A stretch of 21,316 nucleotides of DNA from a virus (Duplodnaviria > Heunggongvirae > Uroviricota > Caudoviricetes), in the IMG/VR virus record IMGVR_UViG_3300045988_115137, one strand, 5' to 3'. Position numbers and translations under genes: made by a program. Below are positions 3,439 to 9,725 of this stretch, in pieces. The number at the start of each line of letters is the position of its first letter. The stretch's first letter is position 1. The notes below the pieces were generated by a model, which was given only the letters and a program-made list of their open reading frames with translations, was not told the origin of the DNA and searched no databases.

Positions 3439-3710
3439 GTATTCGTATTGAAATTGGCGAACGTTATGTCGTTACCAGTGACAGCTTTCAGTTTATTCTC
3501 CACGAGAAAAAGAGAGCGGAAAGCGGTAAAAACGCCGGTCAGGAATGGCTGGCGGTGGTTGGTTATTACCCGAAATTAAGCCAGCTCGTTTCCGGCCTGA
3601 TGCATCACGATATTCTGACCGGAAGCGCAAAGTCTTTTGCTGATTTAAACGCGCAGGTTGAGCAACTCAGCAAGCGTTGTTCAGAGGCTTTTGGCTCATA
3701 TGGCCGTTAA
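3435..3710 (+). CDS. Hypothetical early protein (orf83 position)
   Basis: 91-aa ORF; ATG 3435 overlaps the upstream stop (ATGA); its 3' end overlaps the start of A by 11 nt. Confidence 0.5.
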   Translation: MSIRIEIGERYVVTSDSFQFILHEKKRAESGKNAGQEWLAVVGYYPKLSQLVSGLMHHDILTGSAKSFADLNAQVEQLSKRCSEAFGSYGR

Positions 3711-5979
3711 AGCCTCCGGGCGTTTTGTCCCTCCGTCAGCATTTGCCGCAGGCACCGGTGAGACGTTTACCGGTGCTTATGCATGGAACGCGCCACGCGA
3801 GGCCGTCGGGCGCGAAAGACCCCTTACACGTGACGAGATGCGTCAGGTGCAAGGTGTTTTATCCACGATTAATCGCCTGCCTTACTTTTTGCGCTCGCTG
3901 TTTACTTCACGCTATGACTACATCCGGCGCAATAAAAGCCCGGTGCACGGGTTTTATTTCCTCACATCCACTTTTCAGCGTCGTTTATGGCCGCGCATTG
4001 AGCGCGTTAATCAGCGCCATGAAATGAACACCGACGCGTCGTTGCTGTTTCTGTCAGAGCGTGACCACTATGCGCGCCTGCCTGGAATGAATGACAAGGA
4101 GCTGAAAAAGTTTGCCGCCCGTATCTCATCGCAGCTTTTCATAATGTATGAGGAACTCTGCGATGCCTGGGTGGATGCGCATGGCGAGAAAGAATCGCTG
4201 TTTACGGATGAGGCGCAGGCTCACCTGTATGGTCATGTTGCTGGCGCTGCACGTGCTTTCAATATTTCCCCGCTCTACTGGAAAAAATACCGTAAAGGGC
4301 AGATGACCACGAGGCAGGCATATTCTGCCATTGCCCGTCTGTTTAACGATGAATGGTGGACTCATCAGCTTAAAGGCCAGCGTATGCGCTGGCATGAGGC
4401 GTTACTGATTGCTGTCGGGGAGGTCAATAAAGACCGTTCTCCTTATGCCAGTAAACATGCCATTCGTGATGTGCGTGCGCGCCGCCAGGCAAATCTGGAA
4501 TTTCTTAAATCGTGTGACCTTGAAAACAGGGAAACCGGCGAGCGCATCGACCTTATCAGTAAGGTGATGGGCAGTATTTCTAATCCAGAAATTCGCCGGA
4601 TGGAGCTGATGAACACCATCGCCGGTATTGAGCGTTACGCCGCCGCAGAGGGTGATGTGGGGATGTTTATCACGCTGACCGCGCCGTCAAAGTATCACCC
4701 GACACGTCAGGTCGGAAAAGGCGAAAGTAAAACCGTGCAGCTTAATCACGGCTGGAACGATGAGGCATTTAATCCAAAGGATGCGCAGCGTTATCTCTGC
4801 CGTATCTGGAGCCTGATGCGCACGGCATTCAAGGATAATGATTTACAGGTCTACGGTTTGCGTGTCGTCGAGCCACACCACGACGGAACGCCGCACTGGC
4901 ATATGATGCTTTTTTGTAATTCACGCCAGCGTAACCAGATTATCGAAATCATGCGTCGCTATGCGCTCAAAGAGGATGGCGACGAAAGAGGAGCCGCGCG
5001 AAACCGTTTTCAGGCAAAACACCTTAACCGGGGCGGTGCTGCGGGATATATCGCGAAATACATTTCAAAAAACATCGACGGCTATGCACTGGATGGTCAG
5101 CTCGATAACGACACCGGCAGGCCGCTGAAAGACACTGCAGCGGCTGTTACCGCATGGGCGTCAACGTGGCGCATCCCGCAATTTAAAACGGTTGGCCTGC
5201 CGACAATGGGGGCTTACCGTGAACTACGCAAATTGCCGCGCGGCGTCAGCATTGCTGATGAGTTTGACGAGCGCGTCGAGGCTGCACGCGCCGCCGCAGA
5301 CAGTGGTGATTTTGCGTTGTATATCAGCGCGCAGGGTGGGGCAAATGTCCCGCGCGATTGTCAGACTGTCAGAGTCGCCCGTAGCCCGTCGGATGAAGTT
5401 AACGAGTACGAGGAAGAAGTCGAGAGAGTGGTCGGCATTTACGCGCCGCATCTCGGCGCGCGTCATATTCATATCACCAGAACGACGGACTGGCGCATTG
5501 TGCCGAAAGTTCCGGTCGTTGAGCCTTTGACTTTAAAAAGCGGCATCGCCGCGCCTCGGAGTCCTGTCAATAACTGTGGAAAGCTCACCGGTGGTGATAC
5601 TTCGTTACCGGCTCCCACACCTTCTGAGCACGCCGCAGCAGTGCTTAATCTGGTAGATGACGGTGTTATCGAATGGAATGACCCGGAGGTCGTGAGGGCG
5701 CTCAGAGGTGCATTAAAACACGGCCTGAGAAGACCAAACCGTCAGCAAAGAAACGGAAGCCCGTTAAAACCGCATGAAATAGCGCCATCGGCCAGACTGA
5801 CCCGGTCTGAACGATTGCAAATCACCCGTATCCGCGTTGACCTTGCTCAGAACGGTATCAGGCCGCAGCGATGGGAGCTTGAGGCGCTGGCGCGTGGCGC
5901 GACCGTAAATTATGACGGGAAAAAATTCACGTATCCGGTCGCTGATGAGTGGTCGGGATTCTGGCATCAATTTGAGTAA
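3700..5979 (+). CDS. A: Rolling-circle replication initiator endonuclease (P2 gpA-like)
   Basis: 759 aa from ATG 3700 (MAVKASGRF...); the track start at 3658 is a TTG codon. An HUH-type motif (PHWHMMLF) and a paired-tyrosine motif (GYIAKYISK, Y-x3-Y) are visible. Size is close to the ~761 aa I recall for P2 A. Confidence 0.9.
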   Translation: MAVKASGRFVPPSAFAAGTGETFTGAYAWNAPREAVGRERPLTRDEMRQVQGVLSTINRLPYFLRSLFTSRYDYIRRNKSPVHGFYFLTSTFQRRLWPRIERVNQRHEMNTDASLLFLSERDHYARLPGMNDKELKKFAARISSQLFIMYEELCDAWVDAHGEKESLFTDEAQAHLYGHVAGAARAFNISPLYWKKYRKGQMTTRQAYSAIARLFNDEWWTHQLKGQRMRWHEALLIAVGEVNKDRSPYASKHAIRDVRARRQANLEFLKSCDLENRETGERIDLISKVMGSISNPEIRRMELMNTIAGIERYAAAEGDVGMFITLTAPSKYHPTRQVGKGESKTVQLNHGWNDEAFNPKDAQRYLCRIWSLMRTAFKDNDLQVYGLRVVEPHHDGTPHWHMMLFCNSRQRNQIIEIMRRYALKEDGDERGAARNRFQAKHLNRGGAAGYIAKYISKNIDGYALDGQLDNDTGRPLKDTAAAVTAWASTWRIPQFKTVGLPTMGAYRELRKLPRGVSIADEFDERVEAARAAADSGDFALYISAQGGANVPRDCQTVRVARSPSDEVNEYEEEVERVVGIYAPHLGARHIHITRTTDWRIVPKVPVVEPLTLKSGIAAPRSPVNNCGKLTGGDTSLPAPTPSEHAAAVLNLVDDGVIEWNDPEVVRALRGALKHGLRRPNRQQRNGSPLKPHEIAPSARLTRSERLQITRIRVDLAQNGIRPQRWELEALARGATVNYDGKKFTYPVADEWSGFWHQFE

Positions 5980-6068
5980 GGATCTCATCTATACAGTATA
6001 AGTAGTTTTGACTGTAATTGATTGTTTTTTATATGGTTGCATGCATTAAATCTACGTCAATATCATTA

Positions 6069-6077
6069 TGTTATAAT
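6069..6077 (+). promoter_or_regulatory. Extended -10 promoter element (TGtTATAAT) for the plus-strand cargo operon
   Basis: Exact TGnTATAAT match at 6069-6077, about 29 nt upstream of the first cargo ATG (6106), in an AT-rich leader. The -35 is weak. The palindrome TTGCATGCA (6037-6045) lies where a -35 or operator would be. Confidence 0.4.
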
Positions 6078-6105
6078 GCATTACTTAAAAATGTTGGAGA
6101 TAAAA

Positions 6106-6297
6106 ATGTTAAAGCCTGCAGATGTTAATTGTTTGAAAAGCGGTGGATTTAAAATGACTGTATCTGACTCTACTGAAACTCATGCTAAATGTATTTGGCA
6201 TGATAAAGAAGGAGTTTTGCACGAGGAGTCATTCTCCATTGATTTACTGGAAATAGCAGAGAGTAAAAGTGGTATGCTTTGTCGTCCACGTAAGTGA
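6106..6297 (+). CDS. Small hypothetical protein, first gene of the cargo operon
   Basis: ~63 codons from ATG 6106, with GGAG at 6096-6099. The track's 91-aa version starts at a TTG at 6022. Alternative in-frame ATGs exist at 6091 and 6154, so the start is uncertain. AT-rich; ends 27 nt before the 226-aa gene. Confidence 0.35.
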   Translation: MLKPADVNCLKSGGFKMTVSDSTETHAKCIWHDKEGVLHEESFSIDLLEIAESKSGMLCRPRK

Positions 6298-6324
6298 ATC
6301 ATAATAAAATTCACGGGGGAAAGT

Positions 6325-7005
6325 ATGAAACAATACAGCGAATTAGAAAACAATGTTAAGAGATTCATTGTTGAGCATGAAAAAGGGATTTCTATTGATG
6401 ATATTCATCATAAGTTCCGGATGAAGGATGGTCAGAATCGCAAGATGGCAGATTATCTTATTGATAATAAAAAGATAATTTTGGAGATGAAAAGTCTTTT
6501 TTCTGACAGGGTCAAGAATGTCAATGATAAACTGAATGAGTTGGTTAAAACTGATAGTTGGCTTGCAAAAAACTGGCATGGTGCTATTCATTTAGAAGAG
6601 TTGATAAAAAGACACCCAGACTCAAAGCGATTTAGAAATGATATAATGAACTTTGCTTATGAAAATATTAAAACAAAGATAGTTAAGGAAGCTAATAAGC
6701 AAATAAATGCAACAAAGGATGTTTTGGATTTAAATGACTCGATTGGCGGGTTGATTTTGTTAAATGATAATGTCTTTTCACATGAGTCTAATTATTTGTC
6801 AGATGAAATATTATATTTGCTAGGCACAAAGAGATATTCGAGTGTTGAGTTTGTGGTTTATATTGCAAAATTGATTGATAAACAGGTTGATGTTTGTGTG
6901 CTACTTGACAGTCAATCTAAAAATAAAAATTATATTGAATGGTATATGAATAATGTTTTTTTATTGAACTGGGCGTCTTTTAATAAATATGCAATAAAGA
7001 TGTAG
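6325..7005 (+). CDS. Hypothetical protein, candidate anti-phage defense component (226 aa, no recognisable domain)
   Basis: Clean ORF with a strong SD (GGGGGAAAG) 6 nt before ATG 6325. Lys/Asn/Ile-rich composition; about 30% GC by hand count of 6301-6360. Sits at the A-cos variable locus in the tin-like position and orientation. No Walker A, HNH, reverse-transcriptase or zinc-finger motif seen. Confidence 0.6.
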   Translation: MKQYSELENNVKRFIVEHEKGISIDDIHHKFRMKDGQNRKMADYLIDNKKIILEMKSLFSDRVKNVNDKLNELVKTDSWLAKNWHGAIHLEELIKRHPDSKRFRNDIMNFAYENIKTKIVKEANKQINATKDVLDLNDSIGGLILLNDNVFSHESNYLSDEILYLLGTKRYSSVEFVVYIAKLIDKQVDVCVLLDSQSKNKNYIEWYMNNVFLLNWASFNKYAIKM

Positions 7006-7324
7006 TGGTGTGGATGGATATGAAATGAGTCAACCAAGATGCACCTTGGTCAGTAATCTCATGTGAGATACCACATATAACACCAAAAGTGTCAGGTTGA
7101 TGGCCATTGTTCACCGTTTACAGCAGATTATGGTCAACGAAAATCTGACGCCTGACGAGCTGGTCGGGTGTGCCGAAATAGTCTGGGATAATTACGGGCG
7201 GTTTAACTATATCGGTCAGTCCAGAGTTGCGCCACCACCACGCAGACGATAGAGAACGCCGCCAGTCGTGAAACTTGTTTTCAGGCTGGCGGGGTTGAAC
7301 AACGAGCGAAGTGAGGCGTTAGCA

Positions 7325-8266
7325 TTAAGTTAATTTTAATGAATGGTACTCTATCGAGCTGATTGTAGATGCGATATATTTACGATCATTTACAGAGAGT
7401 ATTGCCGCTAGTAGACGACATACCAGAGCCTGCATTTGTAGCAATATATCGCTACCATATTGACAATCATTGATACTAGAGAAACCAAGCGGTTGCCCAT
7501 TAAAAATGGCTTCATGAAAATTATCATTGCGTATAACTGAAACATTACATTCATCTGTTGCCCATGACGGGATTTTTACACCGTAATTTTCGCACATCCA
7601 ATATACTCTATTTTGATGAGATGGTTTTTTCTCTTTAATGACTTTATCCCTTTCATCCCATGCTATAGCAAAACAGCAATCAAGAGCCATATAAAGATAC
7701 TGGAATTTCTCAAAGGAAAGGTATAGTGGGTTATGTGACAGGAATAGGGAGTGTATCACCGCAGCTATTCTTTTAATGGAGCGATCATCTTTTTGTTTGT
7801 CTTTTATATAGTTAAGTGCTAGCTCTATTACTTCTTTTTCAGAGCATCCAACGAGAATAAAGTCGGTTAACTTAGTGGGCTTGATAGTGGTTGCATCAAG
7901 AAAACCAGCGTCAGTGGTTGTCAATCTTATACCCTTGAAAAAAGAGAGGCACCACACAACAAAGTTGAGAGTTTCTAACGAGGATGTGTTTTTTAATTTT
8001 AGTGTGTGCGTTTTGGGCATGCCGAATACTCGGTAACTATAAGGCATTGTGCATGTGTCACCATTAAGGTTATATACCTTTCGATTCCCAGGGTATATCC
8101 AACCATTAACAACGTTTTTATCATTGTTAATACGTTCCACGTTCTCAATAAGACCGGGTAAAGTACGCAAAGAAAATTGTTCAGTCTCAATGTTAACTTC
8201 TACTGGATAGTATCCAAACTCCGAAATAATCTCATTTGGTTGCTGTTCGTCAACTTCACCTTGCAT
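7325..8266 (-). CDS. Hypothetical protein, candidate anti-phage defense/abortive-infection component (313 aa, no recognisable domain)
   Basis: ORF with ATG at 8264-8266 (minus) preceded by GGAGAAAG at 6-nt spacing. AT-rich. Transcribed leftward from the cos-proximal side, like old in P2, but it lacks the Walker A/ATPase signature expected of Old. Confidence 0.6.
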   Translation of the reverse strand: MQGEVDEQQPNEIISEFGYYPVEVNIETEQFSLRTLPGLIENVERINNDKNVVNGWIYPGNRKVYNLNGDTCTMPYSYRVFGMPKTHTLKLKNTSSLETLNFVVWCLSFFKGIRLTTTDAGFLDATTIKPTKLTDFILVGCSEKEVIELALNYIKDKQKDDRSIKRIAAVIHSLFLSHNPLYLSFEKFQYLYMALDCCFAIAWDERDKVIKEKKPSHQNRVYWMCENYGVKIPSWATDECNVSVIRNDNFHEAIFNGQPLGFSSINDCQYGSDILLQMQALVCRLLAAILSVNDRKYIASTISSIEYHSLKLT

Positions 8267-8555: not shown

Positions 8556-9725
8556 TCAGCGTCTCAGCGCGTCGTGACGGCGCTTAGTCTGCCCGTTGAG
8601 GCGTTGTGTGTCTGCGGGGTGTTTTGTGCGGTGGTGAGCGTGTGAGGGGGGATGACGGGGTGTAAAAAAGCCGCCCGAAGGCGGGGAGGTTATGCGCTGG
8701 TCAGTGTCCAGTGAGTAGTTTTTAAAGCGGATGACCTCCTGACCGAGCCAGCCGTTTATTTCCCGAATTCTGTCCTGTAACGGGATAAGCTCATTGCGGA
8801 CAAAGACCTTTGCCACTTTCTCAATATCTCCCAGTGACCCGACGTTCTCCGGCTTGCCGCCCATCAACTGAAAGGGGATACGGTGCGCGTCCAGCAGGTC
8901 AGCGGCGCTGGCTTTTTTGATATTAAAAAAATCGTCCTTCGTTGCCACTTCACTGAGCGGGATAATTTTAATGCCGTCGGCTTTCCCCTGCGGGGCATAG
9001 AGAAACAGGTTTTTAAAGTTGTTGCGGCCTTTCGACTTCACCATGTTTTCGCGAAGCGTTTCGATATCGTTGCGATCCTGCACGGCATCGGTGACGTACA
9101 TGATGTATCCGGCATGTGCGCCGTTTTCGTAATACTTGCGGCGGAACAGCGTGGCCGACTCATTCAGCCAGGCAGAATTAAGGGCGCTGAGATATTCCGG
9201 CAGGCCGTACAGCTCCTGATTAATATCCGGCTCCAGCAGGTGAAACACGGAGCCGGGCGCGAAGGCTGTCGGCTCGTTGAAGGACGGCACCCACCAGTAA
9301 ACATCCTCCTCCACGCCACGACGGGTATATTTGGCCGGTGAGGTTTCCAGTCTGATGACCTTACCGGTGGTGCTGTAACGCTTTTCCAGAAACGCATTAC
9401 CGAACACCAGAAAATCCAGCACAAAGCGGCTGAAATCCTGTTGCGAAAGCCACGGATGCGGGATAAATGTCGAGGCCAGAATATTGCGTTTAACGTAAAT
9501 CGGTGAGCTGTGATGCACGGCAGCACGCAGGCTTTTTGCCAGACCGGTAAAGCTGACCGGCGGCTCATACCATCTGCCGTTACTGATGCACTCGACGTAA
9601 TCCAGAATGTCACGGCGGTCGAGTACCGGCACCGGCTCACCAAAGGTGAATGCCTCCATTTTCGGGGCGCTGGCGGTCATTGTTTTTGCCGCAGGTTGCG
9701 GTGTTTTCCCTTTTTTCTTGCTCAT
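8556..9725 (-). CDS. Q: Portal protein (P2 gpQ-like); ORF as found carries a probable C-terminal read-through extension
   Basis: 389-aa ORF starting MSKKKGKTPQ..., with its ATG overlapping the stop of P (TGATG). I recall P2 Q as 344 aa. The last ~45 codons are Pro/Arg/His-rich and cross the terminator hairpin, so the true product probably ends near plus-coordinate 8691. Confidence 0.85.
   Translation of the reverse strand: MSKKKGKTPQPAAKTMTASAPKMEAFTFGEPVPVLDRRDILDYVECISNGRWYEPPVSFTGLAKSLRAAVHHSSPIYVKRNILASTFIPHPWLSQQDFSRFVLDFLVFGNAFLEKRYSTTGKVIRLETSPAKYTRRGVEEDVYWWVPSFNEPTAFAPGSVFHLLEPDINQELYGLPEYLSALNSAWLNESATLFRRKYYENGAHAGYIMYVTDAVQDRNDIETLRENMVKSKGRNNFKNLFLYAPQGKADGIKIIPLSEVATKDDFFNIKKASAADLLDAHRIPFQLMGGKPENVGSLGDIEKVAKVFVRNELIPLQDRIREINGWLGQEVIRFKNYSLDTDQRITSPPSGGFFTPRHPPSHAHHRTKHPADTQRLNGQTKRRHDALRR
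8664..8685 (-). terminator. Putative intrinsic terminator at the end of the leftward P-Q late operon
   Basis: On the minus strand a GC stem CCGCC / GGCGG with a 4-nt loop is followed directly by TTTTTT (plus strand: AAAAAA 8664-8669, then CCGCC-CGAA-GGCGG 8671-8684). Confidence 0.45.

Follow-up and report, generated by a model that had tools for sequence, protein, structure and literature searches.

What is the role of a short open reading frame (ORF) that stands directly upstream of a larger gene in the cargo region of a prophage: is it a partner of that gene, its antitoxin, an unrelated passenger, or no gene at all? This question is raised by the 63-codon ORF at positions 6106 to 6297 of a 21,316-nt virus sequence (Caudoviricetes; IMG/VR record IMGVR_UViG_3300045988_115137), the whole of which is referred to below as the window and is a P2-like (Peduovirus) prophage of an enterobacterium. 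The ORF precedes a gene for a 226-amino-acid (226-aa) protein that is predicted to be a nuclease. It was identified as a genuine gene of the DUF2158/YodC family that is linked to the 226-aa gene within one clade of cassettes and is nevertheless dispensable in nature. The reading tentatively favored here is that it is a non-essential accessory or modulator of the nuclease in a two-gene cargo operon.

The small ORF and its start codon

The elements on which the initial annotation had called this ORF, namely 63 codons with a GGAG at suitable spacing, an extended -10 element, and a 27-nt gap to the next gene, were all seen in the sequence (Table 1). Its start, for which ATGs at 6091, 6106, and 6154 had been considered, could be assigned from an alignment of six cassettes (A1). 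ATG 6106 is the sole ATG conserved in this alignment, being present in all six cassettes, and on this basis the ambiguity is settled and the true start is ATG 6106. Three of the four cassettes that are more distant have ACG or CCG in place of ATG 6091, and the upstream frame is broken by a 1- to 2-nt indel between 6091 and 6106. ATG 6154 encodes Met17, a residue invariant in the family, while ATG 6076, from which "ORF73" of AM157369 was annotated, falls within the -10 hexamer. The identical 63-aa form is annotated in RefSeq by the NCBI Prokaryotic Genome Annotation Pipeline (WP_001547483.1).

The stop-free frame extends over 91 codons at ~32% G+C, for which a simple base-composition estimate gives a P value of ~2e-4, and comparison with Citrobacter-type copies gave a ratio of nonsynonymous to synonymous substitution rates (dN/dS) of 0.20 to 0.25 at a dS of ~0.7. 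Positions 6106 to 6297 are a genuine protein-coding gene and not a chance ORF. Conservation of the reading frame in related cassettes, on which the initial annotation had let its call depend, was borne out by ATG 6106 and by the purifying dN/dS but broke down in one cassette, L014, where the frame contains three stops. It is extremely improbable that the ORF lacks a functional product, whether as a chance ORF or as a leader whose translation alone matters. Short as it is, with one pseudogene copy, an unusual core substitution (V8N) in the window copy, and its expression predicted from sequence, it shows this low dN/dS, a conserved start and ribosome binding site (RBS), a Pfam match above threshold, a confident barrel model, and 1,701 family members identified by profile.

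Upstream of the gene, the extended -10 element at 6069 to 6077 may act as a promoter, as judged from its sequence. TATAAT is retained in five of the six aligned cassettes (TATACT in L012), and the TG is likewise retained in five of six. The element was not reported by a generic promoter scan, because a good -35 is absent. The region from 6038 to 6083 also contains a 10-bp palindrome (TAATGCATTA) that overlaps the -10 element and has an operator-like look, and ATGCATTA recurs 35 nt upstream in the same region. The reading of the palindrome and repeats as an operator was rejected, since they are not conserved in the Citrobacter cassettes. An Rfam scan of the whole window identified no RNA family.

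The dS of the small ORF was about half that of the 226-aa gene in the same cassette pairs. Between the window and Citrobacter-type copies it was 0.69 to 0.73 for the small ORF and 1.2 to 1.5 for the 226-aa gene, and among Citrobacter-type copies the respective values were 0.15 to 0.34 and 0.46 to 0.88. The low values of the small ORF could reflect inter-gene recombination, extra constraint on the 5' region, or noise (~39 synonymous sites).

Family and predicted fold of the small protein

The small protein matches Pfam family DUF2158/YodC (PF09926; COG5475) with 27.4 bits against a gathering cutoff of 22.3 (E = 2.7e-6), with residues 6 to 46 aligned to positions 4 to 48 of the 50-position profile. 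It also matches phrog_3261 (E = 2.5e-17), and the PF09926 label is precomputed on its homologues P0027, P0029, and P0030. The DUF2158 relatives retrieved by profile search are nearly all 50 to 80 residues long, and we know of no member of the family with a known function. Using a 64-sequence alignment (A4), which also served as the input for AlphaFold2, it was found that the family residues D6, L10, K11, S12, G13, M17, T18, C29, W31, F43, and L48 are all present in the window protein. The exceptions among conserved residues are V8, G5, and F32, which are replaced by Asn, Ala, and His, respectively, the last of these giving the window protein a His instead of a Phe after the conserved Trp. The protein shares with the family the motif xDVxxLKSGGxxMTV ... 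CxW[FH], a length within the usual 55 to 75 aa, and a predicted small beta-barrel, whereas its clade differs from other members in having its own basic C-terminal tail and a linked nuclease-like gene.

The AlphaFold2 model is a five-stranded barrel over residues 7 to 50 (core pLDDT of 84 to 91), followed by a low-confidence, disordered basic tail at residues 51 to 63 (AESKSGMLCRPRK). Conservation of the tail motif ESG[MI]L-x-R-x-R is limited to the cassette clade. By structure comparison, the predicted barrel resembles a KOW/Tudor-like SH3 fold. No KOW family was present among Pfam matches at E values of up to 0.1, and thus the likeness is one of fold and not of membership in the KOW family. 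Unlike the KOW domains of NusG, RfaH, and Spt5, the small protein stands alone without an NGN domain, and what it is known to share with KOW/NusG is the fold rather than contacts with the ribosome, Rho, or RNA polymerase. Searches for solved structures by sequence, using both proteins as single sequences and as profiles, gave no match.

Codon 8 sets the window copy apart from every other copy examined (Table 1). Val8 is a nearly invariant core residue in strand 1 of DUF2158, and GTT was found at this codon in 27 complete Escherichia coli genomes, in phage records, and in viral and metagenome copies. V8N is the product of two adjacent base changes, and over a 65-nt stretch each of the 27 complete E. 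coli cassettes has exactly two mismatches to the window. The substitution may destabilize the small protein in this prophage.

The 226-aa partner

No family for the 226-aa protein was found in Pfam, PADLOC, or NCBIfam, and a scan of GTDB representative genomes with the 226-aa family yielded no relative. An exhaustive profile search identified 348 remote homologues. Across 16 homologues ranging from close to remote, residues D43, E54, K56, Q126, and N147 do not vary, and the same holds for 68 longer remote homologues. In the model, D43 and E54-x-K56 are located at the strands 44-46 and 51-57, and this D...ExK arrangement on adjacent strands means that a PD-(D/E)xK signature is present. The family gave matches to restriction-endonuclease-like folds, yet a Foldseek comparison of the 226-aa model against the PDB returned no significant match. 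Weak matches to DpnII-MboI restriction enzymes were seen in two remote homologues, and a few bear an additional Mrr_cat or SEC-C domain; PADLOC, run on the remote homologues, gave weak PDC-S12 matches in 4 of 68, which are not interpretable. The 226-aa protein is a probable, rather than a proven, nuclease-like effector, and it is called the nuclease below for brevity.

Linkage of the small gene to the nuclease gene

All cassettes with a nuclease of at least 75% identity to that of the window have a DUF2158 ORF 27 to 43 nt upstream of the nuclease gene. These cassettes cover P2-like prophages of E. coli, Salmonella, and Citrobacter, metagenome contigs, and one other phage context, that of L014, in which a gene with a Phage_tail_S domain lies beside the pair on the downstream side. 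The pair stays linked across divergent cassettes, in which the small proteins are 71 to 74% and the nucleases 75 to 83% identical, and the linkage persists while the third hotspot gene changes between those for ORF313, a 250-aa protein, and a DUF2188 protein. No cassette was found that carried the small gene without the nuclease. A viral scan for cassette diversity retrieved near-identical copies only, and a metagenome scan retrieved no additional cassette type. The small protein P0031, which has a replaced C-terminus, was considered as a natural disruption and dropped as uninformative, because its contig stops 74 nt beyond the gene.

Co-transcription of the two genes, as proposed in the initial annotation, is very probable: they lie on the same strand, the gap between them is 27 nt, a putative promoter lies upstream, and no terminator-like site was found between them in a scan. 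A TTCAC...GAGG block in the spacer is kept across cassettes, including those without the small ORF. The further suggestion that the small gene is a partner or regulator of the nuclease gene holds in part, as the two are linked in all of the cassettes described above and have been curated as one system, but the association is not obligate. Rousset et al. 2022 (PMC9122126) paired the 226-aa protein with the 63-aa protein in their Table S5B as "system #63 (DUF2158)," which was seen 67 times among 18,150 P2 hotspot loci. The sequences of system #63 are absent from Table S2 of the same study, which holds the tested systems.

Nuclease genes without an intact small gene

A clade of 240-aa nucleases with 64 to 66% identity to that of the window has no DUF2158 ORF upstream; its members are carried by Pantoea ananatis IncFII plasmids, by a chromosomal island close to a type VI secretion system (T6SS) Hcp gene, and by two metagenome contigs. 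A 40%-identical homologue in another prophage (locus L060, 3327-5539) also occurs without a DUF2158 gene. In L014 (540-728 of a contig from Logan SRR31800417), the small ORF is a pseudogene with three in-frame stops and a dN/dS of 0.76 against its closest relative. The 229-aa nuclease of the same cassette is full length, keeps D/E/K, and has a dN/dS of 0.22 over the same comparison, and therefore selection has preserved the nuclease since the small protein was lost. The small gene is thus dispensable in nature.

The L060 homologue is situated 33 nt after a gene for a CI-type repressor (HTH_3 and Peptidase_S24) and faces a convergently oriented DUF4238 gene; Rousset et al. (PMC9122126) showed that a lone DUF4238-domain protein gives protection against T7. 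L060 represents a defense-like neighborhood of the nuclease family in which DUF2158 is absent. A promoter common to cassettes with and without the small ORF was also considered, and this claim was dropped: local alignment was no better than with shuffled sequence, and the MAFFT alignment of promoters across the two clades was misleading.

The cassettes without an intact small gene bear on the antitoxin-like role that the initial annotation had raised. In such a role, the small protein would neutralize a toxic 226-aa nuclease in a type II toxin-antitoxin or abortive infection module, its disordered tail being the neutralizing element. In the small protein, a folded N-terminal domain is followed by a disordered tail, a layout that resembles that of many type II antitoxins. 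With type II systems that have nuclease toxins, the window pair shares the small gene in first position, close spacing, and a single promoter; its partner is nuclease-like, and the mildly acidic barrel (pI 5.1) is set against a basic window nuclease (pI 8.7). The pair differs from such systems in that co-occurrence is not obligate and loss of the small gene has been tolerated in a natural knockout. The nuclease homologues at 64 to 66% and 40% identity are intact, under purifying selection, and keep D/E/K with no such gene upstream, and the nuclease of L014 has remained intact beside an interrupted small ORF. In addition, the predicted barrel is SH3/KOW-like and not one of the DNA-binding folds of antitoxins (ribbon-helix-helix [RHH], helix-turn-helix [HTH], AbrB/SpoVT, or Phd/YefM), and to our knowledge a KOW/Tudor-like SH3 barrel is not known as an antitoxin DNA-binding fold. 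The promoter palindrome and direct repeat, as noted above, are not conserved in the Citrobacter cassettes. Because the natural knockouts and the fold conflict with it, the antitoxin reading is disfavored and considered quite improbable, and the view of the small protein as an obligate partner is likewise disfavored by these cassettes and by the lack of a recurrent partner of DUF2158 genes described next.

DUF2158 genes in other settings

Several observations weigh against a partnership between the two proteins. The genes downstream of DUF2158 at 45 other, diverse loci share no Pfam family, with no recurrent partner among them, and none of the 24 viral loci in this set had a neighbor of the 226-aa family. 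A 48%-identical relative lies between a lipocalin gene and a histidine-kinase gene, which is a housekeeping setting. As DUF2158 has no recurrent partner, a general nuclease-partner role for the family is not indicated. Within the cassettes, the two genes are 27 to 43 nt apart and each has its own RBS, and thus translational coupling is not indicated. Neither protein matched a PADLOC model.

The main rival explanation is that the DUF2158 protein has a function of its own, for example as a KOW-like binder directed at the host or a phage or in a stress-related role like chromosomal YodC, and is co-transcribed with the nuclease-like gene while being functionally unlinked to it. It is consistent with the lone DUF2158 genes found in early-gene clusters of lytic phages, on plasmids, and in housekeeping neighborhoods, with the absence of a recurrent neighbor, with the separate RBSs, and with the nuclease family occurring without the small gene, which in L014 has decayed while the nuclease has not. 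We consider this explanation a serious one but somewhat unlikely, as the pair holds across ~25% protein divergence, exchange of the adjacent gene, and a second phage context, the basic tail is specific to the clade and was not seen in other DUF2158 proteins, and the small gene was never found without the nuclease, P0031 being uninformative on this point.

The only published hint linking DUF2158/YodC to defense is the co-location of YodC-domain genes with UG2/DRT2 defense reverse transcriptases (Mestre et al., bioRxiv 10.1101/2021.12.02.470933). As in the window cassette, a YodC/DUF2158 domain there stands beside a defense effector. In contrast to the small protein, the YodC domain of the UG2/DRT2 accessories is N-terminal in larger proteins, one class of which has a WYL-like C-terminal domain, and their partner is a reverse transcriptase rather than a nuclease.

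A proposed role for the small protein

Stable linkage within the clade, together with the clade-specific tail, favors a functional but dispensable relation between the small protein and the nuclease, and the role of a non-essential accessory is for this reason the one that we prefer. Transcription would start from the extended -10 element just downstream of gpA, with the small gene as the first cistron and the 226-aa gene as the second. Through its barrel or its tail, the small protein may bind the nuclease or a nucleic acid or protein ligand, and this binding could tune the effector by restraining it, by targeting it, or by setting its trigger, in a cell that would tolerate the nuclease without the small protein. 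A physical or functional interaction of the two proteins, nuclease activity of the larger one, and an anti-phage role are inferences.

A more specific proposal is that the pair forms a two-component anti-phage system, in which the KOW-like mini-protein would be the sensor or gatekeeper of a new family of PD-(D/E)xK nucleases. The small protein would then recognize a phage protein or nucleic acid or would mimic the C-terminal domain of NusG. This proposal is regarded as unlikely.

Genomic setting and earlier records

The small ORF is the first ORF of a cargo island in the gpA-gpQ hotspot of the prophage, the left end of the window carrying the integrase and C repressor genes (Table 1). The interval between A and Q has a G+C content of 30 to 38%, compared with ~52% elsewhere in the window. 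In P2-like phages this interval is a cos-proximal hotspot; its cargo in P2 is old/tin, and relatives of P2 carry many anti-phage systems there (Rousset et al. 2022, PMC9122126).

Table 1. Positions of the small gene, its partner, and surrounding features in the window
Feature	Position	Strand	Remarks
Replication gene gpA	3658-5979		Pfam Phage_GPA
Low-G+C (30-36%) cargo island with both genes, between gpA and the backbone starting near 7065	5980-7050	.	From composition profile
Extended -10, TGT-TATAAT (TGTTATAAT), putative promoter element	6069-6077	+	TGT at 6069-6071, TATAAT at 6072-6077; no good -35
Shine-Dalgarno GGAG	6096-6099	+	6 nt before ATG 6106; GGAG in five of six cassettes, GGA in L014
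CDS, small protein of the DUF2158/YodC family	6106-6297	+	63 codons; TGA stop at 6295-6297
Codon 8, AAT (Asn), window only	6127-6129	+	GTT (Val) in every other copy examined
Intercistronic spacer, 27 nt	6298-6324	+	Contains RBS of the 226-aa gene (GGGGGAAAG) at 6315-6323; read from sequence
CDS, 226 aa, predicted PD-(D/E)xK-like nuclease of an undescribed family	6325-7005	+	Starts at ATG 6325
Portal gene gpQ	8556-9725	-	Pfam Phage_portal; followed by terminase and capsid genes

Outside the cassette, phage matches in the hotspot were confined to 7065 to 7320. This segment is 85 to 95% conserved in P2, Wphi, many P2-like phages, and ~350 further E. coli genomes, and it splits the hotspot into two cargo slots. 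The 51-aa ORF at 7097 to 7252 bears the RefSeq name "meiotically up-regulated 80 protein," apparently through a spurious transfer of the name. The hotspot has a second, independent cargo gene in ORF313 (7325 to 8266, minus strand; phrog_5937), for which no family was found in Pfam, PADLOC, or NCBIfam; other genes take its place in Citrobacter relatives that keep the DUF2158-nuclease pair. None of the four hotspot ORFs could be assigned to a family with PADLOC or NCBIfam.

The cassette had been deposited earlier as P2-EC67 ORF73/ORF226/ORF313 (AM157369.1). The cassette of P2-EC67, like system #63, is materially the same as that of the window: it occupies the same gpA-gpQ position, its small protein differs at one residue, and its 226-aa protein is ~99% identical. 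It differs in that ORF73 was annotated from an upstream ATG that is not conserved. Phage vB_EcoM-720R8 also carries the cassette, as do 27 of 5,426 complete E. coli genomes. In the literature searched, neither P2-EC67 nor the accessions of the RefSeq proteins gave a match, and DUF2158 was mentioned in just two papers, in passing. The gene is already annotated and the cassette already catalogued, and no new element is added here; the novelty is analytical and consists of the start codon assignment, the predicted KOW-like fold, the catalytic signature of the partner, the breadth of its family, and the evidence for dispensability.

Significance of the pair

A small ORF preceding a hotspot effector will not surprise a specialist, and the cassette is a reasonable defense candidate, as the pair lies in a locus where many cargo genes have proved to be anti-phage systems. 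The handles gained are a start codon, a predicted KOW-like fold for DUF2158, with its more than 1,700 relatives, and a probable catalytic triad (D43/E54/K56) in the nuclease, and from the natural "knockouts" it is predicted that the small gene is not required for handling the nuclease. If the interaction between the two proteins is true, it would be the first assigned role for DUF2158/YodC. If the small protein is in fact a sensor, this would provide the first function for a widespread orphan family and would explain its association with DRT2.
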